A stretch of DNA of 64,000 nt from an uncultured Pirellulales bacterium (GTDB lineage: Bacteria > Planctomycetota > Phycisphaerae > Sedimentisphaerales > Anaerobacaceae): NCBI GenBank assembly GCA_964581905.1, contig CAZOQJ010000001.1, forward strand, positions 21,653 through 85,652, in the 5' to 3' direction. Position numbers and translations under genes: made by a program. This document shows positions 9,574-59,613 of the stretch, one piece after another (within the stretch, counting starts at the first letter, position 1; each line of letters starts with the position of its first letter). Below the pieces are notes generated by a model. The model saw only the letters and a list, made by a program, of their open reading frames with translations, ran no database searches and had not been told where the DNA came from.

Positions 9574-9605
9574 TATTTGGTCAATAAAAGAGGATTACCA
9601 GTTTT

Positions 9606-11204: not shown

Positions 11205-11205
11205 T

Positions 11206-11832: not shown

Positions 11833-12141
11833 ATGAGCATTAAAAAAAAACTTTTGTTGGATAAGCTGCAGAATATTTTACAAAGGCAAATAGAGCTGGC
11901 CCGGCAAGGTAATATCGGCGAGGTCGAAGCTTTGGTTGAACAAGCCGGATTCCTCGTGGAAAGGATTTCTGATTTAGAGATTTTAGAACTGCCTGAATAT
12001 AAAAATTACCGGGAAAAATTACAGAGATTGTACAAAGAGTTGTGCCTGATACTTGCTGAACGGAAAACCGGTATTGCTGAAGAGCTAAGCCGGATTCGTA
12101 AAGGCAGAAGGACCGTACAGACCTATCACAGTAGTATTTGA
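11833..12141 (+). CDS. small coiled-coil protein, function unknown
   Basis: 102-aa helical ORF whose start abuts the previous stop (TAAATG). No motif I can name. Could be a chaperone-like protein. Confidence 0.45.
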   Translation: MSIKKKLLLDKLQNILQRQIELARQGNIGEVEALVEQAGFLVERISDLEILELPEYKNYREKLQRLYKELCLILAERKTGIAEELSRIRKGRRTVQTYHSSI

Positions 12142-12221
12142 TTATGAGTTAATCGTTTTAAGGGATGACTAAGAACGTAGAAAAATATTTACCAGATGAG
12201 GAGGACAATTAAAGGGCTGTT

Positions 12222-13430
12222 GTGAAAAAAAATGCAGAACAGAAAATCGAAAAGTTACAGGTTGCACATTTGTCCGGGGTAAGCACGGTTGAATGCGACC
12301 AGCAGGGCAAAGATATTTGTGTCACCGATAATTGCGCCGATTCGGTTGCAATTGGTGTTGAAACACAGGCCGATAGACAGCAAAGGGCAGAGCAGCATAG
12401 AGAATGGAACCCGAGTAAACGGTGGAATCCATTTAACAGTTATAAGCTTCTGTCGCACATTGAAAGATGGAAGAGGATTAAACGCGGCAAGGCCATTCCT
12501 CCACCGGTTCTTGTCACTATCGACCCCACCAATGCTTGTAATTTAAATTGTGTTTGGTGTAATGCTGAATTTGTCAGGGAAAAGCGTAAAAACGCGTTAT
12601 CAAAAAAAGCATTGTTTGAAATTGCCGACTTCATGCCCAAGTGGGGTCAGGGCCAGAGTTGTTGGCAACCAGGTGTAAAGGCAGTTTGTATCGCAGGGGG
12701 AGGAGAACCACTATTACATCCGGCAATCAGCGAGTTTATCGACAGGGTTAATGCAAATGGTATTGAGACGGGCGTCGTTACTAACGGTACTATGATAAAC
12801 AGATTTGTTGATTCTTTGTCTCAAGCAGTATGGGTCGGCGTATCCGTTGATGCGGCAACGAGCGATACCTTTAATAAACTAAAAGGCCTGCCCACTAATA
12901 GCAACGTATTTGACCATATTATTGATAACATTGCGATTCTGGTTGATTACTCCAGAATGCATAACAATAAGTTGGGATGGAAACATCCTGCATATGGGGT
13001 GAGTTACAAGTATCTGCTTTATAAGGACAATATTGGCGAGATTTACGAAGCCACAAAGCTGGCCAAGGAAATAGGCTGTAAAAATATTCATTTTCGGCCG
13101 GCCGGGACTACTTGGGATAAGTTAGGGACGGAAAAGGAGATTGCTTTCAGCAGGGATGAAGTGAAGCTTTTCAATGAACAGATAGTCGAGGCGATGAAAT
13201 TGGATGATGAGAGCTTTGGTGTATATGGTGTTACGCATAAGTTTAATAACCAGTTTGAGCGTGCAAACTATTTTAGCAAGTGCCACGCAATTTTTATGAC
13301 AGCGGTTGTAGAACCGCCGGTTGGGAAGAATCCGCACGAAGATTCCTTTGTTGTTGGATTGTGCTGTGACAGGCGCGGAGACCCGAAACTGGAACTTGCG
13401 CAGAACATTATCGATGTAAACGAAATATAA
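12222..13430 (+). CDS. radical SAM enzyme, possibly interrupted by an in-frame stop (see findings)
   Basis: 402 aa with a GTG start. CxxxCxxC cluster motif TNACNLNCVWCNAEF and the GGGEPLLHP motif. Confidence 0.85.
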   Translation: MKKNAEQKIEKLQVAHLSGVSTVECDQQGKDICVTDNCADSVAIGVETQADRQQRAEQHREWNPSKRWNPFNSYKLLSHIERWKRIKRGKAIPPPVLVTIDPTNACNLNCVWCNAEFVREKRKNALSKKALFEIADFMPKWGQGQSCWQPGVKAVCIAGGGEPLLHPAISEFIDRVNANGIETGVVTNGTMINRFVDSLSQAVWVGVSVDAATSDTFNKLKGLPTNSNVFDHIIDNIAILVDYSRMHNNKLGWKHPAYGVSYKYLLYKDNIGEIYEATKLAKEIGCKNIHFRPAGTTWDKLGTEKEIAFSRDEVKLFNEQIVEAMKLDDESFGVYGVTHKFNNQFERANYFSKCHAIFMTAVVEPPVGKNPHEDSFVVGLCCDRRGDPKLELAQNIIDVNEI

Positions 13431-13624
13431 AAGCTGTGGGGCAGTGAAGGGCATTGGAAGATTCACGATGCAATTGCAGTGGATACGGAATGCCCCCGAT
13501 GCACGTATCAGTCGCATAATGAGATTTATGAACAGGTAATCTTGCTGGATAGTATGACATATAAGTTTATTTGATGGTAAGTATAAAAAACAGGGAAAGA
13601 CAATTTGTACGTTAGGGGTGAAGA

Positions 13625-14044
13625 GTGAAACTATCTGTAGTGGGTTTAGGTAAATTGGGATTATGCACTGCGGCTTATTTTGCGTCCAAAGGGCACAAGG
13701 TCATTGGGGTTGAGAAAAATGAGTGTTTGGTCAGGCAGTTGCAGCAAGGAAGCTGCCCTATCAGGGAAACAGGGTTGGTTGAGCTTTTAGGCATGTCGTG
13801 GGCTAACTTTGAGGTGACGACTGATTTGATGGATGCTGTGTCGCGTTCGGATATTACGCTAATTATTGTACCGACGCCAAGCCGACCGGATGGAAAGTTT
13901 TCCAACGAGTATGTTGAGAATGTACTGTGTGGTATAGGGCAGGTGCTGGGGTCCAAGGCTGATTTTCATGTGGTCGATGTTGTTTCGACTGTTATGCCCG
14001 GATCATGCGAAGGTGTTTTCAGGCCTTTAGTAGAGAAAGGCTAA
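13625..14044 (+). pseudogene. N-terminal fragment of a UDP-glucose/GDP-mannose 6-dehydrogenase-family gene
   Basis: Only 139 aa. Rossmann N-terminus MKLSVVGLGKLGLCTAAYFASKGHKVIGVEKN and STVMPGS. The ORF stops where full-length family members (roughly 390-440 aa) continue. Confidence 0.7.
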
Positions 14045-14049
14045 GGATT

Positions 14050-15183
14050 ATGCAGGCATTTCTGTTGGATGATTTTGAGGTTGAGATTGACCTCAGAGCA
14101 GCCGAAATAGGCGGCTGCTGGGAGGGCGAGCTTCGTGACGGGATACCTATCGCGTGGGGGATGGATGAGTTGCGGTTTTTCTACGAAAGGACATTGGAAT
14201 ACAAATCGCCGGTGATTCTTGATGTAGGTGCAAATACCGGTGCATTTTCTATGCTTGCTGTGATGAATCCAGCTATGAGAAGTTATGCATTTGAGCCTGC
14301 GCCTGTTACTTTCGAGGTTTTAAACAAAAATATATCTCTGAATGGTCTTCAAGACAGGGTTAAGACATTCCAAGTTGCTTTGGCTGACAAGAATGGCACG
14401 GCTTCCTTGAAGCATCCGAAATCAGGGATAGCATCCGGTCTGGCATGTATAGGAAAACCATTACGATTTGATGAGTGGATTGAATTCGAAGTTCCTGTCA
14501 GCACGGTCGATGACGTTGTTGGAGAGCAGGGAATAGACAGAGTAGACTTGATAAAAATTGATACTGAAGGCTGTGAGCTGCTGGTCTTAAAAGGCGCCCA
14601 GGAGTTAATAAGGAAGTGTCACCCTGGCATTCTTTGTGGGTGTCACGAAGTCAATACTAAACAGTTCGGATATCATCCAAGCGAGATAGTCAAGCTGCTT
14701 ACCTCATGGGGGTATAAGCATGCAAAGGTCAGCGTTGAAGATATGTATTTCTATATGCCAAAGCAGGCGCACATTGTAAAACCAACTTTTGGTACGAAAA
14801 ATACGGAAACGGCAGCACAGAGCAAATCAGAGTTATCTGGCGTGCGTAACTGCTCTGAGATGGTCTCTCGTAACCTACCAGCTGGAGTGCAGGAATCTGG
14901 CGTAAGTAAAGGGAGTCATCTTGCTGACAAAATGCAAGAATGGATTGAAAGACTCGCATCATTCCAAAATCGTCTTTATTACCGTGACCAGACTCCTCAA
15001 TCACTCAATGCATTAGTTGAGCTTGTACACCAATACAATCCCACTAAAATTGTGGAGTTAGGAAGGCTCTCGGGCCTTTCGCTGCGAGCATGGCTTTCAG
15101 CTAAAAGCGATGCGGAAATCATTGCTATTGATCGTTCATTCGCGGCACTCCATCGAAGTCAGCAGTATCTTCCTGCTAAGTAG
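14050..15183 (+). CDS. FkbM-family methyltransferase with an appended fragment of a second class-I methyltransferase
   Basis: The ATG at 14050 follows an AAGGA RBS. FkbM motifs ILDVGANTGAFS and LIKIDTEGCELLVLKG are present. The last ~90 aa (NPTKIVELGRLSGLSLRAWL..) look like the start of another SAM-MTase, cut off by the stop. Confidence 0.8.
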   Translation: MQAFLLDDFEVEIDLRAAEIGGCWEGELRDGIPIAWGMDELRFFYERTLEYKSPVILDVGANTGAFSMLAVMNPAMRSYAFEPAPVTFEVLNKNISLNGLQDRVKTFQVALADKNGTASLKHPKSGIASGLACIGKPLRFDEWIEFEVPVSTVDDVVGEQGIDRVDLIKIDTEGCELLVLKGAQELIRKCHPGILCGCHEVNTKQFGYHPSEIVKLLTSWGYKHAKVSVEDMYFYMPKQAHIVKPTFGTKNTETAAQSKSELSGVRNCSEMVSRNLPAGVQESGVSKGSHLADKMQEWIERLASFQNRLYYRDQTPQSLNALVELVHQYNPTKIVELGRLSGLSLRAWLSAKSDAEIIAIDRSFAALHRSQQYLPAK

Positions 15184-15193
15184 GACAAGAGTA

Positions 15194-18100
15194 ATGCTTA
15201 CAGTAATCAGAAAGAAAAAGTATGACAAAATAAATTTTGTTTATAGAGACGAGAAAAGCGTCCATTCTCCCTATATGTATTTCAGAGGCCTCAAAACCGC
15301 TTTAGAGAGAAATGGTTTGCTGTATTATGCCTATGATGTATACGGTAATAAGGCTTTGGATACACAGGCACTCTTAAAATATCCGATTTTATGTATCACC
15401 GGCTCTCATGAGCCGATATTTAATATTGTAAAGATTATCAATAATCAGCAATTTGTTGCGGAAATCAATCCTGAATCTTTACACACAAGGCAGGGAAACC
15501 TGGACAATGCATATTATGATACTGTTAAAGAGAGATTGGATTATTTTGATATATACTTTACCCCCGCAGAAGTTGATTTAGATAGTTATTGGGGTAAGCC
15601 GTCTTATTGGCTGCCGTCATGGGCACATACCGAAATATTAGACGATATATCCGTCCCTGTCTGTGATAAGCTTGGCTTTATTGGGCTGAGGCGCGAAAGA
15701 AGTGATTTTCTTTCGCAGGACAAAAACAAAATCATTTTGGCTGAAAATACAATTCCAAAGAATGATTCTTTAGAAAATGTGGTTGAACTATGCAAATTGA
15801 TAAACAAGTTTAAGATTTTACTGAACCCAGTCAGTGCCAGAGTGATGGCGATGACGGGTAAAACATATGAATATATGGCCTGCAAAAGGATGTGCTTATG
15901 TTATCTGAATGAATCATGGATGTTTAAAACGAAACTGTTCTTTGAAGACAACAGGGATATAGTTTTCTTTGAGACGTTTGAAGAGATGGAGGATAAATAT
16001 AAATATTATATAAATAACGAAAAGCAGTTAAATGAGATATCCTTGGCCGGTTATGAGCATGTACGGCGTTTTCATAACGCTGATTTGAGAGCCAAGCGTC
16101 TGGCAGAAATCGTACTTCATCATGCCAATGGAGGAAAATTCAATCCAGAATATAATGATGTTGAGTCGTTTATAAGTGGGAAAAAGTCAAGACTATCGCC
16201 TGCACTTTCTCAGGCAGATAATAACAAACTAAAAGATTTGACTCCTTTTATGAACGAATATGAAATTAAATCGGTGCTTTGCTGCTTCAATTTATTTAAA
16301 AATTCCGTTAAGGTTCTTGAATGGGGAAGTGGAGACAGCACTGTTTATTTTCCTTCAAAGCTTCTATCGGCAAGTACCTGGGATTCGGTTGAACATAATC
16401 CTGAATGGGCTGCTCGAACTCGGGCGTTGATTGAGGGATACGACAATCCAAATATTCGTGTCCATTTCGTTGGTTGTAACAAGGGGTATCAAGAAGGTAT
16501 CGACGATGGAGATTTCGACACTTTTCGGGATTATATTCTTTTCCCTACGGAGTTGGGCAAAAGATTCCAGATAATTCTCGTCGACGGCCGCGCACGCGCC
16601 GAGTGTATGCAAATTGGTTGGATGCTTCTTGAAGACAAAGGTGTGATGGTCCTCCACGATGCGCAGCGATTCGAATATAACCGCGGCGTACCACCAGATT
16701 GCTTTTACTTGAGAATGACAAATCCTCTCGTCCAAAATGGAGGTCCAATATCAGTTCTTTTTATGAGCAAATCGGCGGATCTGCTCATTAAACTTGCCGC
16801 TACCCTTCGCCGGCAACTGCCAAGGTATATTGAACTGGATGGTCGTTTTGATACATCGCTTTGTACCGCCCAAGAAAGTGCCATCACAGCTCGAGACTTT
16901 CTTGTGCAGGGGGTAGACAAGCTACGGTCAGGAAACAGCGAACAAGCTTTGAGTTATCTCAAACAGGCAAAAAATCTCTGCTCCAACATGCCTGATGTTC
17001 ACTTTGCAATCGCCACGGCGTATGCACAGCTTGGAGATTTACATTCGGCCAGGAAAGCGTGCCAGATAGAACTATCGCTACGTCCGGAAAATGACGGTGC
17101 GAAAAGATTGCTTGGTAAAATCGAGAGAATGGTAAATGTGGTTGAGCCAACATGCAGTAAGCAGTCTGTATCTGAAAGCTTAGAGGATAGCTTCTCAGGA
17201 GATACTACCGTTCAGACTATCGAAGGCCCGGTTTTGCAGAGAAATTCTAATGATAATAATATTAAAATAAGCATAATACTAACGGTCTATCAGAAAGAAT
17301 TTCAAATTGCACAAATTATCAAAGGTATTATTAACAACACTACATCACCTTTCCAGTTGGTTATTGTTTATGATGGATGTACTGATAGGTCAGAACAAGT
17401 CGTTAATCAAACATTGTTGCAAAATAAAGGATTAATGCAGGAGCTTAAAGTAGTTTGTACACCCGATGTTTGCGAATTAATGGCTAATAATACGGGTATG
17501 AAAACTGCCGATGGTGAGTATTGGATTCTTGTGCGGGATGACATGTTAATAACTGAAAAGGGCTGGGAGAAAAGAATCATTCATCCTATGGAGGTATGGA
17601 ACGATGTTTTTTCCGTAAGCGCTAGAAACGCTCATAGCTTTATATGTTCTGCTCCTCCTGAGAAAAAAGTGAGCTATACTTGCACAGAGTTAGCTCAAAG
17701 GGCTGTTTTTAAAATCCGGGATGCAGTCAATCGTGGCCCTTTAGCTCTGAGGGCAAGTACAATGAAAGAATTGAACTATTTTGATGAAGCATACTTTCCA
17801 GATTATTTCGATGATATGGATTTATGTACAAGAGCTTACAGGAAACTAAACAAGGTCAGTGGTGTTTATCATATAGATTGGCAGAATCTAAGGGGCACGG
17901 TAGGGTCTAATACTAACCATGTATTAACCACAACAGGTGATATGCATAAAGACGTTATCAGGAGAAACAGGTATCTTTTCTGGTACCGTTATCATGATTA
18001 TTACAATGGCCGAAACCATGATGAGGACCGAATCCTTGTTTTTGGACCGGCTCGGTCTGCGATTGTCTCTGCGGCTAAAAGCATCGAAGCTATAGATTTG

Positions 18101-18751
18101 TACCGGATAGGTTCCGACTATGGAGGTTGGGCAGTTGATTTGGACCTTGTTTCGGATGGAAGTGTTGTCATCTCTGCAGGTGTTGGTGAGGATATATCTT
18201 TTGATATGGGGCTGATTGCTTTGAAGAAGTGTAGCGTAATCAGCATAGACCCAACTGAAAAAGCCAGAAAATATATCGAAGATAATAAACACCCCAACAT
18301 TAGCTTCATTCAGAAGGCATTATGTGCTCAGAGTGGTTCACAGATAAAAATGTACAAAAACACAAATCCGGAATTCGTTTCTGATTCGATACTGCCTTCT
18401 CACGACAATGTTTCAGATGCAGGTTCTTATACAGTAGGAACAATTAATATCCCTGATATTCTAAGTCAGTGTCCGGATGTTTCTATTTTGAAGATGGACA
18501 TCGAAGGTGCAGAGTACGAGGTCATTAGCTCTCTTGATAGGTTGGATATACCTCAGGTGTGCATAGAATTTCACCATTTTTGCTCAGATTTCACTGAGGA
18601 TGACACAAAGAAATGCATAGAGCGTATGAAAAGACTGGGATATGTTGCAGCCTATGATACTAATCCGCAAAAACCGTTCACCGAATTTACTTTTATACAC
18701 AAAAAGTGTGTAAGCAATAAGAGTCCTGTGGAAATGAATGTGGGAACATAA
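15194..18751 (+). CDS. five-module chimeric glycan-modifying protein: CgeB-like GT / class-I MTase-like / TPR / GT2 / FkbM MTase
   Basis: About 1,185 aa from the ATG at 15194, which is 10 nt after the previous stop. Modules: CgeB/DUF3880-like GT (TGKTYEYMACKRMCLCY..FETFEEMEDK), VLEWGSGDSTVYF, TPR (ALSYLKQAKNLCSNMPDVHFAIATAYAQLGD), GT2 (ISIILTVYQKE..LVIVYDGCTDRS), FkbM (ILKMDIEGAEYEVI). Confidence 0.85.
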   Translation: MLTVIRKKKYDKINFVYRDEKSVHSPYMYFRGLKTALERNGLLYYAYDVYGNKALDTQALLKYPILCITGSHEPIFNIVKIINNQQFVAEINPESLHTRQGNLDNAYYDTVKERLDYFDIYFTPAEVDLDSYWGKPSYWLPSWAHTEILDDISVPVCDKLGFIGLRRERSDFLSQDKNKIILAENTIPKNDSLENVVELCKLINKFKILLNPVSARVMAMTGKTYEYMACKRMCLCYLNESWMFKTKLFFEDNRDIVFFETFEEMEDKYKYYINNEKQLNEISLAGYEHVRRFHNADLRAKRLAEIVLHHANGGKFNPEYNDVESFISGKKSRLSPALSQADNNKLKDLTPFMNEYEIKSVLCCFNLFKNSVKVLEWGSGDSTVYFPSKLLSASTWDSVEHNPEWAARTRALIEGYDNPNIRVHFVGCNKGYQEGIDDGDFDTFRDYILFPTELGKRFQIILVDGRARAECMQIGWMLLEDKGVMVLHDAQRFEYNRGVPPDCFYLRMTNPLVQNGGPISVLFMSKSADLLIKLAATLRRQLPRYIELDGRFDTSLCTAQESAITARDFLVQGVDKLRSGNSEQALSYLKQAKNLCSNMPDVHFAIATAYAQLGDLHSARKACQIELSLRPENDGAKRLLGKIERMVNVVEPTCSKQSVSESLEDSFSGDTTVQTIEGPVLQRNSNDNNIKISIILTVYQKEFQIAQIIKGIINNTTSPFQLVIVYDGCTDRSEQVVNQTLLQNKGLMQELKVVCTPDVCELMANNTGMKTADGEYWILVRDDMLITEKGWEKRIIHPMEVWNDVFSVSARNAHSFICSAPPEKKVSYTCTELAQRAVFKIRDAVNRGPLALRASTMKELNYFDEAYFPDYFDDMDLCTRAYRKLNKVSGVYHIDWQNLRGTVGSNTNHVLTTTGDMHKDVIRRNRYLFWYRYHDYYNGRNHDEDRILVFGPARSAIVSAAKSIEAIDLYRIGSDYGGWAVDLDLVSDGSVVISAGVGEDISFDMGLIALKKCSVISIDPTEKARKYIEDNKHPNISFIQKALCAQSGSQIKMYKNTNPEFVSDSILPSHDNVSDAGSYTVGTINIPDILSQCPDVSILKMDIEGAEYEVISSLDRLDIPQVCIEFHHFCSDFTEDDTKKCIERMKRLGYVAAYDTNPQKPFTEFTFIHKKCVSNKSPVEMNVGT

Positions 18752-18802
18752 TAATTAATTGTATTAATTAGCGTTAGATATATTGATACATAGGTAATAA
18801 TT

Positions 18803-21800
18803 TTGAGAGACATCCCTGTCATTTTGATATGCTACAACCGGCCTTGGCACACTGCTCAGGTGCTCAAAGCTTTGCTGGAACACGGTATTCAGAACCTTTA
18901 TATCTTTTCAGATGCACCCAAAAGCTCAAGGGATGTTGAGGGTGTTTTAAAAACTCGCGAGCTCTTTAAGGCCATCCGATGGACTAAGCCGAAGATTATA
19001 GAACGCAATGAAAATTATGGTCTTGCGCGTAGTATTGTCAGCGCCGTAAATCATGTATTTGAGGGACATGATAGGTTAGTTCTGCTTGAAGATGATTGTG
19101 TGCCCCGAAAGCACTTTTTCGATTTTATGAAAGAGTGTCTTGAGCGATACGAGAACCATGACAGGGTTTTTGGTATTAACGGCTATACAGTCCCTATCGC
19201 TGAGGATTTGTTGTCGGATTATCCCTTTGATATATATTTTTATCCACGAATAGGCAGTTGGGGCTGGGCTACATGGAAGAGTGCCTGGATGCATTATGAG
19301 CCTGATTTAAGGAAAGTCTGCGAACAGATTAAAGTCAATGATATCGATATTAATCAAGGTGGAACTGATATCCCCCAAAACGTACAAAAGCTGATAAATG
19401 GTGAAATTAAGGATGTTTGGACTTTAAATTGGGTTTTATCAGTTTACTTAAATAAAGGCTATTACATATATCCTACATTTTCACAAATTCGCAATATTGG
19501 ATTTGACGGGACAGGGTTACACTGTGGTGAAACTCATAAGTTTGATAATTTCTGTGTTGATTATAAGCCTAGGAGATTTCCCGATGATATTATCATAAAT
19601 GAAGGTTTGATTAACAACTACAATGATTATTTTGGCAACCCAAACAAAAAGCCCGAAGTTGTTTCGAGGCAAACGATTCAACACAACTTTATAGCTGAAC
19701 CTCACGGCACAAAGCATAATTGCAGCACTGCGAATGCCGGCAAATTATCAATTGTTCATATCAACACCCACGACCAGGCAGGTGGTGCTGCCAAGGTTGC
19801 CTGGCGTCTGGCTGAGGCCCAGCGTAACGCCGGGTGCGATTCAATTATGCTTGTGGGAGAAAAAAGGAGTGATTCAAAATACTCTTTTGCCTTTCCTGTC
19901 GAGGCCGATAGGTCTCTACGCATCCAATGTAGACAGCAAGGCCAACTTTATTATGAATTTCAGGGAAGTCACAAGTTAGTGAATAATCAACATGTTCTCT
20001 CCGCCGATATTTTGCATCTACATAATTTGCACGGTGACTTTTTTAATCCTTCTTCTCTTTCATCCCTATCGCATCTAAAGCCAACAGTATGGACTCTGCA
20101 TGACCAGCAGCCAACTACAGGACACTGCGCATATTCATTAGATTGCCAGAGGTGGGAAGATGGTTGCGGCCAGTGCCCTATGTTGTCGCTTTATCCTGAT
20201 ATACTGATTGATACAAGCGCTCAGCTCTATCGCGACAAAAAATTGATTTATGATAATTCATATCTCAACATAGTCGTACCTTCACAATGGTTGAAAGACA
20301 ATGTCCAGCGAAGTATTTTGCGTAACCACCCGGTGGAGCTGATTTACAATGGTATTGATACGAATATTTTCAGACCTTACAACAAAATAGAGGCGAGGAA
20401 AAAACTTGGTATACCGACGGATGTTTTGGTAATCGGTGCTGTCGCCCATGGTGGCGCACTGGAAAACCCCTGGAAAGGAGGAAATTATACCAGGGCGGTA
20501 TTTGATGCTTTACAAACTAAGTTGCCGGACCATATTTTCGTCAATATCGGAGGCAATTCTAAACTCGATAGTTCCAGGATTATCAGTATACCTCATATTA
20601 ATGATGAGAGCGAGCTTGCTCAAGCTTATTCTATGCTTGATATATTCTTATACACTCCCGCGGCAGATAATTGTCCACTTGTTGTCCTTGAAGCATTATC
20701 CTGCGGTATTCCTATTGTGACTTTTGACACCGGTGGTGTACCAGAGTTGGTTCGCAATGGTTTAGATGGTTATGTATCTCCTTATAAGGATGTGCACGGA
20801 CTTGTGCAGGCATTGGAGAAATTGGCTGCTCAAACCCAGTTGCGAGCCGAATTCAGCCGGAATGCCCGTCAGGAAGCAATCGCGAAGTTCGACCATAAGA
20901 AAATTGCCCAGCAATACCAAGAACTGTACGAACGTTGTTTACAGCAGCGCAAAAGCGAAGCCAGAAAGGTAAAATTATTACCATTAGCCGCAGTGCCAAA
21001 AGTTATTCTAAATAGGGCATTTATCAAAGCGGAGAGTACAAAAAAAGTATTAGACTATGATGCTGAAAAAAAGCGGGAGGCTAAATGCCACGATAATTTC
21101 AAAGTATCCAGAGACAATGAGTTAGTCATCGCCACGAGTATATCCCCCAAAAATCTTGCCAAACAGGTAAAGGCAGTGGAAAGTTGGGTAAAGCTTGGAT
21201 TTGACGTCGTTTCAATAAATTGTGCCGAAGAAATCCAAAAGCTGCAGGGGGCATTTCCTGACGTTAAGTTTATCCAGGCAAAGCGGGATGCAAGAGAAAT
21301 GTTTGGCAAACCTTTTATATATTTTGACGATTTTTTGGAATATTTTCTACGGACCGACTCTGAGATTTGTGGGATTGTAAACTCGGATATCTTACTGATT
21401 GGAGATAAAGGTATCGTTTCTTTTATTAAAGAAGAAGCAGCCGATTCGCTTGTCTACGGACCAAGGATAAATGTTGATTCCTTAGAGCGGTTAGATGGTA
21501 AATTTTTCAATGAGGGATTTGACTTCTTTTTTTTCCCAAAAATTTTTGGTTCATTCTTCCAGAAATCCTGTTTTTGTGTAGGAATGCCCTGGTGGGATTA
21601 CTGGATGCCGTTGATTCTGATATTAGAAGGTATATCGGTGAAAAAACTTACTTCTCCATTTGCATATCATATTAAACACTCTTTCAGATGGAACGGAGAC
21701 CAAGGTAAGCTTTTAATAAATAAATGTTTTGAATATTTGCAGCCCAAGCTTAACGACAATTTCAACTCAAATCCTGATACTAATCAGTGGGCCTTTTTAG

Positions 21801-24800
21801 CTCGGATGCTCAAGGATTATCACGACCGTGATGTCAGAGAAAATAACAGGACAGAAAAAGATAGAATATCACCTGACGTTTTTTATTATTGTATTTTTGA
21901 CTTTTTAAAAATAAAGTCATCCGAGATTAGCTATGCCGGTAGCGAGCCGACAACGTCGCAAATTGACCAATCAAAAAAGAAAAAAGATATTTTTATCCAT
22001 AAAGATGCCTTGAAAGCACAGAATGCAGATTATCTGCACGCTGACTATGATGTCAGCATCGTAATTTGCACCAAGGATAGGGCCGAGCTGCTTGACCAGA
22101 TGTTTGCCAGCTTGGAAGAAGCAGCCAAATGCGTAGCTTACGAGGTAATTGTAATTGAAGGGGGTTCTACTGATAACACGCTTGATGTATTGCGCAAATA
22201 CAAAGTTACAAAAGTCTACAGCGAGTCGGAATGGCTTGGGCCAGGCAGACATTCCTGGCCACAGCTATATAACTTCGGTTTCTCAAAAGCTACTGGCAAA
22301 TGGGCAATGTATGCCAGCGATGATATTATCTTCAGCAAAGAAGCTATCTCGTGGGCCTTCCGAACGCTGAGCAGTCAAAGTGACAAAGTGGCGGGCGGTA
22401 TTTTCTTTTACAAAAATATTTATTGCTTCGAATCCGCACGGGAATGGGCCAGCTACGGAATCGATTTTACTCATGGCCAGAAGCTTTTGATGAACTATGG
22501 CTTGATTAGATTGGACTATTTCCACGAAGTTGGTGGGTTAGAAGAAGTTTATCAGTTTTATTGTGCTGACAGTGATTTATGCTACAAACTATACGAAAGA
22601 GGCAAGCAACTAATTCCTTTGCCGGCAAGTTTTATCGCACACAACAATGTGCTTGATGCCCAGAAGAAAGTAAATTACTCCACCAGCGGCAGAGATATCG
22701 AATTACTACGGCGGCGATGGAAGCATTTTGTTCCTATGGAAATTCCAGAGCCGAGACGTTTGGTCTGGCAGGAGGACCTTTTCGAGGCACTTAATTTGAT
22801 GAGTAATTTGGGAAAAGTTAATTATGGCATCGGGAGTTTTTGGCACGGCCTTGCGTATTTTCAACAGGAACTGTTCGAAAAGGCAAAGTCAAAATTTATT
22901 CAGGCTATTGAGTCGCACTGCGAACACTGGCTGGTTCACTGGCTTTTGGCCAAAGCGGCATATCAGTGTGGAGATAAAGCTCTGGCTGAAAAGATGGTTC
23001 TGCAGGTACTAAAGCAGGCACCGACTTTTGGCCCGGCAAAGGATTTTTTGAATCAACTGAGTGCCGAGGTAGGAGAAAGTGCCGAGCTGGTACAATGTCA
23101 GACAAAAAGCGAGAACCGATTATCACCTATAGAGATGAACACGAGAAAAGACATGGTTGGCCTTATATTCAGTAAAGACCGCGCTATGCAACTGCAAGCG
23201 GCTCTCGAATCCTTCTTTTTGCATTGTACCGATAGTGAGCAGATAAAATTATTTGTCCTGTACCAGGTTTCAAATCATTTACACCAGCGCCAATATAATA
23301 ACCTGAAAAAAGACTTTGGTAATATAACATTCATTAAAGAAACCAACTTTAAACAGCAGCTTTGCACTATTGTGGAAGGCTCTGAATATGTGTTATTTCT
23401 GGTTGATGATAATCTGTTTGTGAAAGATTTTTCTCTCGCCGATGTTGTCAAAAGTCTGCAGGGGAACAAGGACGCAATTGGTTTTTCGCTAAGGTTGGGC
23501 AAGAACACAGATTATTGTTACTCTCATGACAGCAAACAGAATTTACCTGTATTCCAGGGGATAGATAATGGGATATTGAAATATAACTGGACAGCCGGTG
23601 AGTATGATTTTGGTTATCCATTGGAGCTATCAAGTTCATTATACAGGACCAGCGACATTCTGATACTGCTGGATAAACTGGAATTCACCCATCCGAACAT
23701 CCTCGAAGATATGATGGCAGCTAATTCTCAGCTATATGCACAAACCAAAGACTTCCTGCTTTGTTATGAGAATTCTGTTGCATTCTGTAATCCGATAAAC
23801 AAAGTTCAGTCGGTTTGGAACAACCGCTCATGTACCGACGATAGATACTCAGCCGAAAGATTAGCTGAAATGTTTGAAGATGGAGTAAGAATAGATGTAG
23901 AAAAGTTCTCAGGTTTTGTCCCCAATTCTTGTCATCAGGAAGTACAAGTATATTTCAAGACAGAGGAAAGAGGACAGAAGGCGGCAGATAGAAGATGGAG
24001 CCCCGAGCGTGAGGTATCCCCGCCCAAATTCTCCATCGTCATGGCCAATTACAATAAGGAAAAATATATTGCCGAGGCCATAGAATCTGTGTTGAATCAA
24101 ACATTCACGGACTGGGAACTAATCATCATTGATGACTGTTCGACGGATGATTCTCTGAATGTAATCCAAAGATATCTTGATGATACTCGTATAAAACTAA
24201 TTCAGCACAAGAAAAATCGTGGTAAAACGGCTGCATTAAAGGCAGGTATCGCCAATGTGCGGTCAGAGTATTTTGGTATCTTGGACAGCGATGATTGCCT
24301 CCTGCCAAATGCGGTGGAAACTATGTATGCATATCATGAAAAGTTTCCCGATTGTGGGCTTGTATACTCGCAATTTGCGTATTGTCATCAGGACCTTACG
24401 CGAAGGTGCGTTGGCTTCTGTGATAAGATACCAGCAGGTAAGACAGCCCTTGATTTAAATGTCGTCAGTCATTTTCAAACCTTTAAGCTGTGTGATTACC
24501 TGAAGACCTCAGGTTACGATGAGAATATCTTATATGCCGAAGACATTGATATCGTCTACAAAGTGGAGGAAGTGACCAGCCTAAAATTTATGGATGAGTG
24601 TCTTTATCTGTACAGAGAGCTGCCTACCTCGATTTGTCATTCCAAGGATAAAATTAATGTTGCAATAATGTCGAGAGTAAAAGCGAGAATAAACGCTCTA
24701 AAAAGAAGATGCGATGTTTTAGCTGAGTCAGGCAATAAAAATTTTGAGGATTTATTTGCTCAGGCTGTTAAACAAGCGAGAACAATTCATAAAGATGTTG

Positions 24801-25891
24801 AGCAGTATTTTGTAATATTGGCAAAGCTATATGAAAATAATCTGTTATCGCCGGATTTGAACCTTCCTGTCGATATTGAAAGACGGGATGTTGAGGAAAG
24901 ATTATTATGGCTTGCAGCCAATGTAGACATAAAATTCGACAAGCTGTTTGAATTGCTTGCAGGTCAGGGAGAAACGGAAAAACAACCGCTGGTTACCGTA
25001 TATATAGTAGCGTATAATGCAGAAAAGTTTATCGCTCAGGCCATCGATTCCGTTTTATCGCAAGTCTATAAGAATTTCGAATTGTTGATTGTTGATGACG
25101 GTAGTACCGACAAAACTAAAGAGCTGGTGGCTTCTTACTCGGATGACAGGATTCACTATATTTATAAGGAGCATAAAAATTATGCTTCGGGGGTGAACAG
25201 AGTGATAGCTGAGGCAAAGGGTAAATACATTATGGTTGTCGATTCAGACGACTTTATTGCTCCCGACTACATTGAGAAAATAGTGGCTTTTGCTGAAAAG
25301 CACCCGCAGATAGATTACTTTTATCCTGCCCAGCTTACTCTTGTGAATGAATCCGGTGACCCGACAGGCCAGCAGTGGAGCTATATGGATTTTTCGGATA
25401 ACAGTGTTCTTCCGTCATTCCTGTTTAAAAATGGCTATGGACCGATTCCGAATCCGGGCAGTCTGAAAAGGAAGACTTTGTTTGACAAGGTCGGATTGTA
25501 TGATGAGGTTGATACTGTCGAGGACTTTGTATTTTTGTGCAAAAATGCCCTGAAGATAAATTTCAAAAGAGTTGATGAGCATTCGACTTATTTCTACAGA
25601 AGGCATCGGCAAAGCAATTCCCTAAAGTTTGAGGCAAGAAATCGGATTATGGCTGATGTGCTCAACGAGATGGTCTCGATTTATCCGGCTGAAGTGTTAT
25701 ATCCACAAGTCGTGGATATAAGTGACGCCGGTTTGAAAGAGCAGCAATACTATAAATATGTAGTGGAGACTTTTTGCAGGCATGCTAACGGCCCAATGGT
25801 CCAATTCGGGCAGTATTTTCAAAAGTATGCGGTTTATTATAAGTCGAAGCTGTTGAGAATTACCGGGCCAAAACAGTTGGTTCCAAAATGA
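18803..25891 (+). CDS. giant (2,362 aa) poly-glycosyltransferase with at least 7 GT-type modules plus TPR
   Basis: Single uninterrupted ORF. The TTG start is the only in-frame start after upstream stops, so its exact position is uncertain. Module motifs: GT-A with LLEDDCVP; GT-B/GT4 LSIVHINTHDQAGGAAKVA..EALSCGIPIVTFDTGGVPELV; three classic GT2 heads (VSIVICTKDRAELL, FSIVMANYNKEKYIAEAIESVLNQTFTDWELIIIDDCSTDDS, VTVYIVAYNAEKFIAQAIDSVLSQVYKNFELLIVDDGSTDKT); two further GT-A-like segments. Confidence 0.85.
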   Translation: MRDIPVILICYNRPWHTAQVLKALLEHGIQNLYIFSDAPKSSRDVEGVLKTRELFKAIRWTKPKIIERNENYGLARSIVSAVNHVFEGHDRLVLLEDDCVPRKHFFDFMKECLERYENHDRVFGINGYTVPIAEDLLSDYPFDIYFYPRIGSWGWATWKSAWMHYEPDLRKVCEQIKVNDIDINQGGTDIPQNVQKLINGEIKDVWTLNWVLSVYLNKGYYIYPTFSQIRNIGFDGTGLHCGETHKFDNFCVDYKPRRFPDDIIINEGLINNYNDYFGNPNKKPEVVSRQTIQHNFIAEPHGTKHNCSTANAGKLSIVHINTHDQAGGAAKVAWRLAEAQRNAGCDSIMLVGEKRSDSKYSFAFPVEADRSLRIQCRQQGQLYYEFQGSHKLVNNQHVLSADILHLHNLHGDFFNPSSLSSLSHLKPTVWTLHDQQPTTGHCAYSLDCQRWEDGCGQCPMLSLYPDILIDTSAQLYRDKKLIYDNSYLNIVVPSQWLKDNVQRSILRNHPVELIYNGIDTNIFRPYNKIEARKKLGIPTDVLVIGAVAHGGALENPWKGGNYTRAVFDALQTKLPDHIFVNIGGNSKLDSSRIISIPHINDESELAQAYSMLDIFLYTPAADNCPLVVLEALSCGIPIVTFDTGGVPELVRNGLDGYVSPYKDVHGLVQALEKLAAQTQLRAEFSRNARQEAIAKFDHKKIAQQYQELYERCLQQRKSEARKVKLLPLAAVPKVILNRAFIKAESTKKVLDYDAEKKREAKCHDNFKVSRDNELVIATSISPKNLAKQVKAVESWVKLGFDVVSINCAEEIQKLQGAFPDVKFIQAKRDAREMFGKPFIYFDDFLEYFLRTDSEICGIVNSDILLIGDKGIVSFIKEEAADSLVYGPRINVDSLERLDGKFFNEGFDFFFFPKIFGSFFQKSCFCVGMPWWDYWMPLILILEGISVKKLTSPFAYHIKHSFRWNGDQGKLLINKCFEYLQPKLNDNFNSNPDTNQWAFLARMLKDYHDRDVRENNRTEKDRISPDVFYYCIFDFLKIKSSEISYAGSEPTTSQIDQSKKKKDIFIHKDALKAQNADYLHADYDVSIVICTKDRAELLDQMFASLEEAAKCVAYEVIVIEGGSTDNTLDVLRKYKVTKVYSESEWLGPGRHSWPQLYNFGFSKATGKWAMYASDDIIFSKEAISWAFRTLSSQSDKVAGGIFFYKNIYCFESAREWASYGIDFTHGQKLLMNYGLIRLDYFHEVGGLEEVYQFYCADSDLCYKLYERGKQLIPLPASFIAHNNVLDAQKKVNYSTSGRDIELLRRRWKHFVPMEIPEPRRLVWQEDLFEALNLMSNLGKVNYGIGSFWHGLAYFQQELFEKAKSKFIQAIESHCEHWLVHWLLAKAAYQCGDKALAEKMVLQVLKQAPTFGPAKDFLNQLSAEVGESAELVQCQTKSENRLSPIEMNTRKDMVGLIFSKDRAMQLQAALESFFLHCTDSEQIKLFVLYQVSNHLHQRQYNNLKKDFGNITFIKETNFKQQLCTIVEGSEYVLFLVDDNLFVKDFSLADVVKSLQGNKDAIGFSLRLGKNTDYCYSHDSKQNLPVFQGIDNGILKYNWTAGEYDFGYPLELSSSLYRTSDILILLDKLEFTHPNILEDMMAANSQLYAQTKDFLLCYENSVAFCNPINKVQSVWNNRSCTDDRYSAERLAEMFEDGVRIDVEKFSGFVPNSCHQEVQVYFKTEERGQKAADRRWSPEREVSPPKFSIVMANYNKEKYIAEAIESVLNQTFTDWELIIIDDCSTDDSLNVIQRYLDDTRIKLIQHKKNRGKTAALKAGIANVRSEYFGILDSDDCLLPNAVETMYAYHEKFPDCGLVYSQFAYCHQDLTRRCVGFCDKIPAGKTALDLNVVSHFQTFKLCDYLKTSGYDENILYAEDIDIVYKVEEVTSLKFMDECLYLYRELPTSICHSKDKINVAIMSRVKARINALKRRCDVLAESGNKNFEDLFAQAVKQARTIHKDVEQYFVILAKLYENNLLSPDLNLPVDIERRDVEERLLWLAANVDIKFDKLFELLAGQGETEKQPLVTVYIVAYNAEKFIAQAIDSVLSQVYKNFELLIVDDGSTDKTKELVASYSDDRIHYIYKEHKNYASGVNRVIAEAKGKYIMVVDSDDFIAPDYIEKIVAFAEKHPQIDYFYPAQLTLVNESGDPTGQQWSYMDFSDNSVLPSFLFKNGYGPIPNPGSLKRKTLFDKVGLYDEVDTVEDFVFLCKNALKINFKRVDEHSTYFYRRHRQSNSLKFEARNRIMADVLNEMVSIYPAEVLYPQVVDISDAGLKEQQYYKYVVETFCRHANGPMVQFGQYFQKYAVYYKSKLLRITGPKQLVPK

Positions 25892-25923
25892 AAAAATGCG
25901 CTAAGTGAAAAGATAATATGTAG

Positions 25924-25950
25924 TTAAGTAAATGGATTTTTATACGATAA
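25924..25950 (+). promoter_or_regulatory. sigma-28 (FliA)-type promoter candidate for fliD
   Basis: TTAAGT-N15-CGATAA has the same spacing as the enterobacterial consensus TAAAGTTT-N11-GCCGATAA. About 80 nt upstream of fliD. The same motif and spacing recur upstream of flagellin. Confidence 0.55.
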
Positions 25951-26029
25951 TAATCTTTAGGACGAGACACTTGTAGTAGGCATAGGGAGGCCGCAGAAGC
26001 TCGGGATTTAAAAAGAAAGGTGGACAAAA

Positions 26030-28402
26030 ATGTCGACTATACGTCTTCCAGGCCTGCAGACAGGCATTGATACAAATGCGCTTATTGAACAATTGATGGC
26101 TATTGAACGCCGTACGCTCAACGTCTGGGAAAACCGCAAAGCGGTTTGGCAGGAGAGACAGGAAGCCCTTAGCACCTTGGAATCCAAGTTGCGGAATCTG
26201 CGAACCTCCGTTCGAGCACTTTCAGATGCCGATGAGCTCCGCGCCTTTAATGTCTCTACAAGTGACGAGGAAATAATAACGGCTGAAGCGACAAATAATG
26301 CCTTTGAAGGAAATCACACAGTTGTAATCAACCAGTTGGCCAATGCTGAGCGATGGGTTCATAGGACCGGCCATAAATATGCCGAAGACTATGTTGGAAC
26401 TGGCACTTTTGTCTATTCGTATAATTATAAAGAAACAAGTATAACAACCACTGCAACTACGACGCTACAGGATCTGGTCGGTCTAATTAATAACGATGCA
26501 AATAATCCCGGTGTTACTGCCGGTCTCTTACACTATGACGATGCCTACCATCTGGTTCTTAATGGTGAGGATGCAGGCACAGATTATCAAATTCACGTCA
26601 ATACAGGCAGTACCGAGGTCTGGAAAAGTGGCTCGGCCTTTACTTATGATAATGACAACGCTTTGTTGAGCACAAAAATTAAAGACCTCGACCAGTTCAG
26701 CGGGACTCTCAGCGACTCAGATGAATATGAAGAATATATTGAAATAAAAAATTGTACAGACCATTTTGGTGTTTCAACAGCTCAGGTGGACTTTTATGTT
26801 AATGAAAATACAACACTTGGCCATCTTATTTCAGAGATTAACGATGCTTTTGATGGAAGGGCAAAAGCAGTTTTCGAAAATGGCAAGATTGTTTTAACAG
26901 ATAGTGTCGGTGGCGAAAGCAGTCTTTGGATCGAATTAGGGTGGAATGACGATGGCGGGGGCACATTGCTGGACGGGCTTGCTATGAGTGTTACAACCGA
27001 GGGCAACGCAACAGAAGCGAGTCTGTCCGGTTACACAGCATCGGCCTTTACTAAAAGCCAGACCGCCCAGGATTCAAAAATCAAGGTCGATGGTTTTCCC
27101 GATACGTCAGCGACTTCGGAAGTTCAAACGGTATCATTGAGCGGTGGTCCCGACGGCGGCTCATTTACACTCACTTACCGAGGTGAAACAACATCAGATA
27201 TTGCTTACAATGCAACTGCCGAAGAAATTAAGACCGCACTTGAGCTACTCTCAACCGTCAATTCAGGTGATATAACGGTTTCTGGCTCTATCGATGATGG
27301 TACAACTTTTACATTTGCGAATTCATTAGGTAACGTTGACCTGCTTATGATTAACTCTTCACTAACAAACGGGGGAAGTCCGTTAACAGCCAGTATTTCT
27401 GAAACAACGCCGGGTAGTGACAGTTACATCAGCAGAAGCTCTAATACGGTTGACGATGTGATTAGCGGTGTCACGCTGCATCTGCACGATACTACCAGTG
27501 CCAATGGCGAAGATATAACTCTTACCAGAGATGTACAATCGGTCAAAGATAAACTTGATGCAATGGTCATCGCCTACAATGCTGCTATCAGCCATATTAA
27601 AGAAACGACCGGCTATAATGAGATTACACAGGTCGGCGGTATCTTGATGGGGGATTATGTTGTTTCGACCATCCAATACCAGTTCCGTGGACCGCTTATC
27701 GAGCAGGCAGCCGGTTTTTTAGAGGATGTCGATTCGTTCTTGACCCCCCTCAACATCGGCCTTGAATTCGACAAGGACGGCATACTAAGTCTGGACACAA
27801 ACGATTTTGATGAAGCAATAGCCGAAGATTATAGGGGTGTTCTTGCTTTAATAGGCGCCGACAAGACAGGCAGCAGCACCAGCGATACCATCGAGTTCTA
27901 CAGTGCCAGTACAAATTATACAACAGGGGGTGAATATAACGTACAGGTGACAGTAAGCGGTGGGGTCATCACAAGTTCCCAAATAAAACTTTCAACCGAA
28001 TCGACATATCGTGATATGACAATTAGCAGTAATATTATTACCGGCAATAGCAGCTTTGACGATAACGGCGACCCAGTGTATGCTGAGGACGGTCTTCAGC
28101 TAAGCGTCGACTTGACTACGGATGGCGATTATACCGCTACGGTTTACGTCAAGCAGGGTTTTGCAGGTAAAATAGAGGATAAAATCGATAGAATGCTAAA
28201 GGCAACCGTAGGTTCTATCATAGTTGACCAGGACCATGTCGAAGACCAGATAGAACTGCTCCAGGACAAAATTGAGGATGAAGAATACCGTCTTGAGCAA
28301 AGAGAGAAAAGATTGGTACTTCGCTTTGCCCGCCTCGAAAAAGCATTGACCTTAATACAAAACCAGATGGCCGCTGCAAGCATAATAGCTATATCGTCAT
28401 AA
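26030..28402 (+). CDS. fliD: flagellar filament cap protein FliD (enlarged, 790 aa)
   Basis: N-terminus TGIDTNALIEQLMAIERRTLN and C-terminal coiled coil LEQREKRLVLRFARLEKALTLIQNQ are typical of FliD. It has a long central Thr/Ser/Gly-rich insertion. Confidence 0.9.
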   Translation: MSTIRLPGLQTGIDTNALIEQLMAIERRTLNVWENRKAVWQERQEALSTLESKLRNLRTSVRALSDADELRAFNVSTSDEEIITAEATNNAFEGNHTVVINQLANAERWVHRTGHKYAEDYVGTGTFVYSYNYKETSITTTATTTLQDLVGLINNDANNPGVTAGLLHYDDAYHLVLNGEDAGTDYQIHVNTGSTEVWKSGSAFTYDNDNALLSTKIKDLDQFSGTLSDSDEYEEYIEIKNCTDHFGVSTAQVDFYVNENTTLGHLISEINDAFDGRAKAVFENGKIVLTDSVGGESSLWIELGWNDDGGGTLLDGLAMSVTTEGNATEASLSGYTASAFTKSQTAQDSKIKVDGFPDTSATSEVQTVSLSGGPDGGSFTLTYRGETTSDIAYNATAEEIKTALELLSTVNSGDITVSGSIDDGTTFTFANSLGNVDLLMINSSLTNGGSPLTASISETTPGSDSYISRSSNTVDDVISGVTLHLHDTTSANGEDITLTRDVQSVKDKLDAMVIAYNAAISHIKETTGYNEITQVGGILMGDYVVSTIQYQFRGPLIEQAAGFLEDVDSFLTPLNIGLEFDKDGILSLDTNDFDEAIAEDYRGVLALIGADKTGSSTSDTIEFYSASTNYTTGGEYNVQVTVSGGVITSSQIKLSTESTYRDMTISSNIITGNSSFDDNGDPVYAEDGLQLSVDLTTDGDYTATVYVKQGFAGKIEDKIDRMLKATVGSIIVDQDHVEDQIELLQDKIEDEEYRLEQREKRLVLRFARLEKALTLIQNQMAAASIIAISS

Positions 28403-46516: not shown

Positions 46517-46568
46517 GTTGTTCTTTCACGTGCTTCGAGTTTTTACTTGCTTAGAGCACATTGCATAA

Positions 46569-50475: not shown

Positions 50476-50477
50476 TT

Positions 50478-51941: not shown

Positions 51942-51955
51942 TGTTTTTTCGGTTT

Positions 51956-57410: not shown

Positions 57411-57434
57411 ATTCGGTACTCACCAATGCTACTC

Positions 57435-57486
57435 TGCCCCCCCGCTCTTGCCCCTTAGGGGCTGCGGGGGCTACGAAGCACGAGTC
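57435..57486 (+). repeat. GC-rich nested-hairpin element ending in GCTGCGGGGGCTACGAAGCACGAGTC (copy 2)
   Basis: Outer stem GCCCCC(CC)GC..GCGGGGGC and inner GCCCC-TTA-GGGGC. The 3' half is near-identical to 32267..32296. Lies in the gspD-gspE spacer. Confidence 0.8.
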
Positions 57487-57540
57487 GGCTTTCTTATCCA
57501 TAGGACGCCTTACGGCGCAACCGAAAAAGTTATCCGGTTC

Positions 57541-59601: not shown

Positions 59602-59613
59602 GCTGCTAACAAT

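Follow-up and report, generated by a model that had tools for sequence, protein, structure and literature searches.

A 2,362-residue protein with seven glycosyltransferase modules beside fliD of an uncultured planctomycete: a probable enzyme of flagellar glycosylation

A stretch of 64,000 nucleotides from an uncultured Pirellulales bacterium (GenBank assembly GCA_964581905.1, contig CAZOQJ010000001.1, positions 21,653 to 85,652), here called the window, contains in a flagellar gene region a single open reading frame (ORF) of 2,362 amino acids, in the following named the giant. It combines seven glycosyltransferase (GT) modules with a short tetratricopeptide repeat (TPR) segment. We regard it as probable that this soluble protein, as part of a variable flagellar island of a Phycisphaerae-like planctomycete, glycosylates a flagellar export substrate stepwise in the cytoplasm, the most probable substrate being flagellin. 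This reading is drawn from the predicted solubility of the giant, the lack of lipid-carrier machinery in the window, a synteny linked to fliD and FliT, and the analogy to FlmG and to the Pseudomonas flagellin glycosylation.

Modules of the giant protein

An uninterrupted ORF with eight modules had been proposed in a reading of the sequence alone. No stop codon was present between positions 18803 and 25891, and all module positions were reproduced to a few tens of bases, with M3 and M6 reaching further in 3' direction than had been marked.

18803-25891, + strand: whole ORF, 2,362 amino acids, TTG start, no internal stop, module order M1-M2-M3-M4-M5-M6-M7-M8
18803-19672, + strand: M1, GT-A module, GnT-I/GT13-like, amino acids 1-290; E96-D97-D98 and H240 invariant (≥90 % in 60 sequences)
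19742-20947, + strand: M2, GT-B fold of the GT4 type, amino acids ~314-715; Pfam matches all above cut-off
21125-21946, + strand: M3, predicted GT-A fold, amino acids ~775-1048; family without Pfam model
22046-22762, + strand: M4, GT2, amino acids ~1082-1320; PF00535 at 2.9e-13, 50.5 bits (cut-off 23.3), amino acids ~1085-1215
22820-23062, + strand: M5, short TPR, amino acids ~1340-1420; about two repeats and a capping helix
23150-23968, + strand: M6, predicted GT-A fold, amino acids ~1450-1722; second family without Pfam model
24023-24727, + strand: M7, GT2, amino acids ~1741-1975; PF00535 at 4.1e-34, 118.4 bits (cut-off 23.3), amino acids ~1744-1856
24986-25702, + strand: M8, GT2, amino acids ~2062-2300; PF00535 at 1.3e-33, 116.7 bits (cut-off 23.3), amino acids ~2062-2170

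The composition of seven glycosyltransferase modules (five GT-A modules of four sequence types, one further GnT-I-like GT-A module and one GT-B module) and a short TPR agreed with the sequence-only reading; M3 and M6 are assigned at the fold level only, and the family of M1 is unsettled. An AGG is located a few bases 5' of the TTG start. The start codon is credible because the encoded N-terminus, (M/L)RDIPVILxCYNRP, is shared with the N-termini of many homologues. An identical protein (P0001) is on an NCBI record of an 88.9-kb contig. The hydropathy maximum (1.61 in a 19-residue Kyte-Doolittle window) was located in the GT4 core and no transmembrane segment was present. Lacking a hydrophobic stretch of transmembrane grade, the giant is judged to be a soluble protein; a membrane-embedded synthase was rejected for the absence of transmembrane segments.

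A long ORF on a draft contig (88.9 kb) with repeated GT2 modules, which could in principle mislead an assembler, might be an assembly chimera or the wrong joining of separate genes. This is exceedingly improbable and was ruled out by collinear homologues in independent JGI, ENA and NCBI assemblies. The module order is preserved in P0002 (JGI), P0004 (ENA) and P0005, the latter encoded with M1 to M7 collinear in a closed 5.84-Mb Phycisphaerales genome (CP070678.1). Between M7 and M8 the similarity is remote (phmmer, 1e-20), hence there is no near-identical repeat to collapse. In a codon comparison with P0002 (locus L087, 79 % identity overall), the ratio of non-synonymous to synonymous substitution rates (dN/dS) was 0.11-0.30 for each module, the linker between M7 and M8 and the C-terminal tail, and thus uniformly low over the junctions and the linker. 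Since the ratio is low in all modules, none of them appears to be a decaying remnant. The expected acidic residues were conserved to at least 90 % in every module in an alignment of 60 homologues.

M1 had been described as a GT-A domain with an EDD-type motif, which the profile comparison supported. The single sequence yielded only GT2 matches (E ~0.01, below the Pfam cut-off), no GNT-I match, and chance-level matches in PDB. A profile of 15 homologous modules matched human POMGnT1 (GT13, 5ggf) with an E-value of 0.001 and aligned LLEDDC on VLEEDL, so that the EDD stands in register with the EED of POMGnT1. Among the 15 homologous modules, 11 matched PF00535 and six matched PF03071 (GNT-I, best 2.3e-6). 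M2 was recognised by PF13439 (1.5e-10, 41.8 bits, cut-off 28.5, amino acids 327-521), PF00534 (1.3e-19, 70.9 bits, cut-off 26.4, amino acids 596-690) and PF13692 (3.5e-16, above cut-off). Its C-terminal half carries D622-x7-E630 in place of E-x7-E, with both positions conserved, a tolerated yet non-canonical variant. The N-terminal half of M2 contains a H-C-x5-C-x6-C-x2-C cluster (H441, C442, C448, C455, C458; window positions ~20123-20179) conserved to at least 90 % in 60 homologues; it is probably a structural zinc site, unusual for GT4 enzymes.

M4, M7 and M8 each combine a PF00535 match above the gathering threshold with an acidic motif of the DxD type and an upstream aspartate. The residues conserved to at least 90 % are D1124, S-D1173-D1174 and D1256/D1258 in M4, D1778, D1782, D1828-S-D1830-D1831 and E1913-D1914 in M7, and D2099, D2103 and D2147-S-D2149-D2150 in M8. 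A conserved helical linker (dN/dS 0.11) follows M7 and extends to amino acid ~2061. An hhalign comparison of module profiles built from homologues linked M4, M7 and M8 only (95-99.9 %; M4-M8 98 %, M7-M8 99.9 %); M1 and M8 were connected with 22 % probability, and M3 and M6 were unrelated to all other modules. The TPR match of M5 was sub-threshold for the single sequence (TPR_16 at E 9.5e-4; 25.2 bits versus a Pfam cut-off of 32.7). Of 13 homologous segments, 12 matched TPR_2. With their profile, consensus TPR proteins were matched at 7e-25 and the TPR region of human OGT at 1.4e-8. In homologues, M5 usually accompanies M4. A scan with NCBIfam returned sub-threshold equivalog matches only (TuaG, WcaA, PgaC and others), from which no specific function was derivable. 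Overall, the domain calls with Pfam hidden Markov models that had been proposed as a check placed the GT4 module and three GT2 modules above cut-off. The expectation of intact catalytic residues in every module held for the conserved acidic motifs, but not to the letter in M2, with its D-x7-E, and in M3, which has N-x-D.

For M3 and M6, searches with single sequences or profiles in Pfam, NCBIfam and PDB sequences gave no match beyond chance level, so fold evidence was needed. AlphaFold2 models were calculated from alignments of homologous modules and compared to the PDB with Foldseek. The model of M3 (predicted local distance difference test, pLDDT, 86.4; predicted template modelling score, pTM, 0.85) had as best matches TarP, the fucosyltransferase WrtF and RmlT (E 1.6e-7 to 1e-6, probability 1.0, template modelling score, TM, ~0.5). 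Nucleotidyltransferases of the same superfold, RmlA and GDP-mannose pyrophosphorylase, followed at lower ranks (TM 0.30-0.38). The model of M6 (pLDDT 91.5, pTM 0.91) was closest to rabbit GnT-I (1foa, 5.3e-9), TarP and SpsA, with probability 1.0 and TM 0.50-0.55. On these confident models both modules are GT-A folds, and the earlier suggestion of two GT-A-like modules of unknown family was borne out. In M6 an invariant D1535-D1536-N stands right after the fourth strand (model strand 85-90), the canonical DxD position. The corresponding position of M3, after strand beta-4 (model strand 91-95), is occupied by an invariant N860-S-D862, the asparagine being invariant in 14 homologues; D842-D843, H956 and H959 are further conserved residues.

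An acceptor in the flagellum would also be compatible with a protein in which only some of the modules are catalytic: M3, and perhaps M1 or M6, could be scaffolds, lectin-like binders or regulators, in which case a glycan of far fewer than seven sugars would result. The missing first aspartate of the DxD motif in M3, the lack of a sequence relation of M3 and M6 to any characterised glycosyltransferase, and the nucleotidyltransferases in the Foldseek list of M3 speak for such a division of labour. We nevertheless consider it quite unlikely. In M3, D842-D843, D862, H956 and H959 are conserved, as are D1535-D1536 and many polar residues of M6 (≥90 %), and the dN/dS values of M3 (0.15) and M6 (0.21) are in the range of the bona fide GT2 modules. 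Moreover, glycan clusters contain free-standing members of both families, a mode of occurrence that fits enzymes better than scaffolds.

The M3 family comprised 335 homologues, mostly stand-alone 'hypothetical' proteins of 240-350 amino acids, some of them fused to TPRs. The M6 family was represented by 4,398 cluster representatives at E ≤ 1e-3, and 86 of the best 150 have at least 1,000 amino acids. Stand-alone relatives of M3 were encountered in three settings: a Clostridium Maf island, a cluster with OGT-like GT41 enzymes and a Geobacter cluster of the O-antigen type. In Clostridium sp. BSD9I1 (FYAM01000023.1, locus L089, 8001-9530) the M3 relative is fused to a C2185-like N-terminal domain and has as neighbours two Maf/MptE-like proteins, a CMP-sugar synthetase-like gene and several GT2s. 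The M3 family thus seems to be present also in what looks like a Gram-positive glycosylation island of the Maf (flagellin) type. Set apart from Pfam, NCBIfam and PDB sequences, the M3-like and M6-like GT-A families may lack a CAZy family. Because both families are large and yet missed by current domain libraries, many genomes carry unannotated glycosyltransferases.

The flagellar island and its conservation

The giant is followed, after a gap of 139 nt, by fliD, the gene for the filament cap. The same position immediately 5' of fliD, with flhB-fliRQPO-motAB behind it, was found for the giants P0005 (58 % identity) and P0008 (45 %), and P0046 (locus L084, ~47 % identity over the shared modules) is likewise located directly 5' of fliD. 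Searches with tblastn placed fliD next to three further giants of Pirellulales and Phycisphaerae (L006, L008, L011). A relative of 1,958 amino acids is encoded 8 kb 5' of flagellin-fliS-fliD in a different gene order. In the case of P0002, the downstream ORF at the same position is incomplete at the contig end and has no Pfam record. The flagellar context proposed from a single locus is therefore backed by fliD-adjacent homologues in independent assemblies. The position between flgL and fliD had been read correctly as far as these genes flank the region, but on the flgL side the island ORFs 8119-18751 intervene. The genes of the window relevant here are:

6697-7887: flgL, the last of flgG, flgA, flgH, flgI, flgN, flgK and flgL in this order
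8119-9573, + strand: TPR and GT-B protein of FlmG-like architecture (N-terminal TPR, C-terminal GT-B)
9606-11204, + strand: GT2
11206-11832, + strand: TPR protein
11833-12141, + strand: FliT-like helical ORF, 102 amino acids
12222-13430, + strand: radical SAM protein
13625-14044, + strand: sugar-nucleotide dehydrogenase fragment, 139 amino acids
14005-15183, + strand: FkbM methyltransferase
15110-18751, + strand: upstream partner of the giant, 1,213 amino acids, with GT-B-like, TPR, GT2 and FkbM modules
26030-28402, + strand: fliD (FliD_N 7e-24, FliD_C 1.6e-34)
opposite strand: flhB, fliR, fliP, fliO, motB, motA, fliI, fliG, fliF
43884-45509, + strand: TPR-GT protein, 541 amino acids, long TPR domain and weak GT9-like C-terminus
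48162-48977, + strand: flagellin, 271 amino acids, D0/D1 domains only (Flagellin_N 6e-35, Flagellin_C 7e-24), the sole flagellin in the window

All genes of the 18-kb island between flgL and fliD are on the + strand. The small ORF at 11833-12141 had no family match itself, and ORFs at the same position in loci L084 and L087 matched PF05400 (FliT); it likely codes for a flagellar export chaperone amid the glycosyltransferases. The left arm of the island (TPR-GT, GT2, TPR, FliT-like) was common to the loci of P0008 (L002), P0046 (L084) and P0002 (L087), preceded by flgK-flgL in those of P0008 and P0046. As the genes between FliT and the giant differed in each genome compared, the island consists of a conserved and a variable arm. 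At the position of the 1,213-residue ORF, relatives encode a differently composed multidomain protein (913, 1,252 or 1,734 amino acids) or have it fused into the giant. In P0046 (L084 10001-18754, 2,917 amino acids), radical SAM/SPASM and FkbM domains, separate genes in the window, are fused into the fliD-adjacent giant, an arrangement which shows that gene fusion and fission occur within the island. Of the UDP-glucose/GDP-mannose dehydrogenases, the fragment at 13625-14044 matches the NAD-binding N-terminal domain alone (PF03721, 2e-29); it ends in a stop codon, and its 3' end overlaps with the beginning of the FkbM ORF (14005). It has the appearance of the remnant of a gene truncated by island rearrangement. 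Where the 1,213-residue ORF truly starts is uncertain, because the listed ATG leads to an overlap of 74 nt with the FkbM ORF before it. The G+C content of the variable part (14000-26000) was 0.40-0.43 versus 0.45-0.46 in the flanking flagellar genes, a difference in keeping with a cassette that is exchangeable or was acquired.

Between fliK and the flagellin gene, a second small glyco-cluster was observed (43884-47789). It consists of the TPR-GT protein, another candidate for a flagellin-binding initiating enzyme, a GT4-like protein of 335 amino acids and a protein of 406 amino acids without family match, the latter two on the - strand. A complete-looking type II secretion set (GspC, D, E, F, pseudopilins I/J/K, an L/M-like pair and PilM/N-like domains) is located at 49942-60528 on the - strand and is unrelated to the island.

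All window ORFs of at least 150 amino acids were scanned with Pfam. Among them was no phosphoglycosyltransferase, Wzx/Wzy flippase or polymerase, Wzm/Wzt ABC exporter or oligosaccharyltransferase, and neither Maf (PF01973), NeuB/PseI nor a CMP-sugar synthetase. A system of the Maf or nonulosonate type was rejected for the lack of such genes among the scanned window ORFs. A promoter and terminator scan of the region 7.8-27 kb, with a method that does not cover sigma-28 and sigma-54, gave counts equal to the shuffled expectation.

The giant could also synthesise a non-flagellar glycan, a cell-surface or capsule-like polysaccharide or the decoration of another secreted or surface protein, at a flagellar site that merely tolerates variable islands. 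Generic module families would fit this: M1 relatives are stand-alone proteins of ~300 amino acids in Flavobacterium, Sphingobacterium, Saccharibacteria and Methanolobus, and in Geobacter argillaceus an M3 relative is encoded beside a Wzt ABC-transporter gene. The low G+C content of the island, as expected for an acquired cassette, points in the same direction. This explanation is unlikely in view of the adjacency to fliD, which holds down to 45 % identity and over Phycisphaerae and Pirellulales, the interleaving of a FliT-like chaperone gene and FlmG-like TPR-GT genes in the island, and a window scan without initiating phosphoglycosyltransferase, flippase, polymerase and ABC exporter.

Several observations weigh against a flagellar glycosylation by the giant. 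The giants P0078 and P0103 had no flagellar genes within 10 kb, and this favours a non-flagellar product as well. With the flagellar proteins of the window as queries, tblastn detected none near the giants of Geotalea, Desulfobacteraceae, Ignavibacteria, Bacteroidetes and Fibrobacteres, a weak negative, as the giant ORF fills the 10-kb flank in several cases. Members of the module families were also present in non-flagellated Bacteroidota and in glycan clusters, those of the O-antigen type among them. With such distant giants without visible flagellar neighbours and module families in other glycan settings, the class as a whole is not flagellum-specific. In addition, the window contains no nucleotide-sugar biosynthesis genes that would point to a donor, the asparagine in M3 makes its activity and metal dependence uncertain and suggests a non-canonical chemistry, and no paper on flagellin glycosylation in planctomycetes was found in the open-access literature or on bioRxiv.

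Cytoplasmic glycosylation of a flagellar protein remains the reading that we consider probable for the giant of the window. The acceptor would be modified before flagellar type III export and would most probably be the 271-residue flagellin, in whose central loop 11 of 30 residues (amino acids 151-180) are serine or threonine. An FlmG-like TPR-GT protein (8119-9573 and/or 43884-45509) would attach the first sugar. The giant and its 1,213-residue neighbour would then extend it to a hetero-oligosaccharide with nucleotide-sugar donors, one sugar per module, and FkbM methyltransferases, perhaps also the radical SAM enzyme, would decorate or cap the chain. The internal TPR would assist in binding the substrate protein or a partner. 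The acceptor, the order of action, the transfer of one sugar per module and a role in motility are what we infer from the locus.

Comparison with known systems

In Caulobacter, the N-terminal TPR of FlmG binds short flagellins, and its GT-B domain glycosylates them in the cytoplasm (PMC7591256). FlmG of C. crescentus resembles the giant as a soluble, cytoplasmic protein, linked to flagellar genes and built from TPR and GT domains, and its flagellins have a size of ~273 amino acids (PMC7591256). FlmG differs in its size of 596 amino acids, its sole GT domain and the transfer of one pseudaminic acid only; the giant comprises seven GT modules, and its TPR is short and internal. The layout of FlmG, TPR at the N-terminus and GT-B at the C-terminus, is shared by the island ORF 8119-9573, but not by the giant itself. 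Unlike the FlmG system, the scanned window ORFs included no nonulosonic acid synthesis genes and no Maf.

Longer flagellin glycans are established for Pseudomonas aeruginosa a-type flagellin, with up to 11 sugars added by sequential extension of the first sugar, and for Aeromonas, with a methylated heptasaccharide (PMC3958885). The glycosylation islands of these bacteria are polymorphic and located beside flagellar genes, like the one described here, and operate by an initiating transfer followed by sequential extension. They encode many separate single-function proteins (14 genes in strain PAK); here, the transferases are fused in two giant polypeptides.

Known multi-module glycosyltransferases contain two to three catalytic modules and act mostly on lipid-linked acceptors, and the viral ones act on capsid protein (PMC11231755, PMC2943079, PMC7826918, PMC9614988). 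In the synthesis of ABC-transporter-dependent O-antigens (Klebsiella O7 ORF6, WbdA/WbbB-type), several GT modules are united in one soluble or peripheral protein, methyltransferase modules terminate the chains, and the catalytic modules are spread variably over single- and multi-module proteins (PMC11231755). These enzymes differ from the giant by only two to three GT modules, undecaprenyl-diphosphate acceptors, export by Wzm/Wzt and a coiled-coil ruler (PMC11231755), partners that are not in the window, where the context is flagellar. The chlorovirus PBCV-1 proteins A111/114R, with three GT functions, and A064R, with two GTs and a methyltransferase, are soluble multidomain enzymes that assemble an oligosaccharide in the cytoplasm, right on a structural protein (PMC7826918, PMC9614988). 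They differ from the giant in their viral origin, in the N-linkage of the glycan and in their number of modules, three at most. WsaE of Geobacillus stearothermophilus joins a methyltransferase and two rhamnosyltransferase (GT2) domains in one polypeptide for the protein-linked glycan of the S-layer (PMC2943079). It differs by acting on a lipid-linked intermediate, which is passed to the S-layer protein after export, and by having three modules versus eight (PMC2943079). The locus described here unites the idea of the multi-module glycosyltransferase and that of the flagellin glycosylation island at a larger scale.

A shuffled class of giant glycosyltransferases

A protein search with the giant yielded at least 130 homologues at E ≤ 1e-10. 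Among the best 120, 63 have at least 2,000 and 15 at least 3,000 amino acids, the longest being 3,938 amino acids. The sequence-only reading had considered such a multi-module fusion rare; this did not hold, given the number of large homologues and the shuffling of modules over several phyla. By these comparisons, the giant is one member of a large, combinatorially shuffled and unstudied class and not unique. The pair M1-M2 and the block M2-M4-M5 recurred among the homologues. Variation consisted in a duplication of M3 (M3-M3 in P0011 and P0012), loss of M8 (P0004, P0005), a position of M6-M7 before M1-M2 (P0017, P0018) and insertions. Frequent fusion partners of the modules were methyltransferase, radical SAM, long TPR and asparagine-synthase-like domains. 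When genomes were scanned with M1, more than 510 loci were detected. Copies with at least 46 % identity were parts of ORFs of ~1,000-4,200 amino acids in Desulfobacteraceae, Geotalea, Pirellulales, Phycisphaerae, Bacteroidetes, Ignavibacteria and Fibrobacteres. Those with at most 40 % identity were mostly stand-alone proteins of ~300 amino acids, a minority of ~520-730 amino acids, in many phyla including non-flagellated Bacteroidota and archaea.

Exchange of modules was visible between close relatives. P0002 contains an additional GT2 module between M2 and M3, and the synonymous divergence (dS) between P0002 and the giant was 0.77-0.93 for M3-M5 (21125-23062) and 0.21-0.38 in M1-M2 and M6-M8. 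The mosaic pattern together with the extra GT2 module suggests recombination within the gene. The extra GT2 of P0002, the three-fold higher dS of M3-M5 and the tandem M3 of P0011/P0012 are also the signs of swapping behind a more far-reaching idea: the giants might be modular 'glycan assembly-line' enzymes of a widespread class not recognised so far, in which the set and order of modules specify the sequence of a protein-linked oligosaccharide, with a collinearity like that of non-ribosomal peptide and polyketide synthetases (NRPS/PKS), and in which module swapping diversifies the flagellar surface as antigen or phage receptor. We put this forward as a speculation of low probability. The term 'assembly line' had been used already in the sequence-only reading, and nothing in the analysis showed an ordered, collinear process.

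Giants of this kind are common in metagenomes of Planctomycetota, Desulfobacterota, Ignavibacteria, Fibrobacteres and Bacteroidota but unstudied; a description of giant or multidomain glycosyltransferases in flagellar loci was not found in open-access papers and on bioRxiv. Flagellin glycosylation is known mainly from pathogens, where it is carried out by separate enzymes and often attaches a single nonulosonic acid. The locus would be a compact and genetically tractable system to study what determines the sugar sequence of a protein-linked glycan and whether the fusion of modules imposes order or processivity. Its significance would grow if the module order were indeed collinear with the glycan sequence. 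The exchange of modules among close relatives points to a simple way in which environmental bacteria could diversify their surface glycans.

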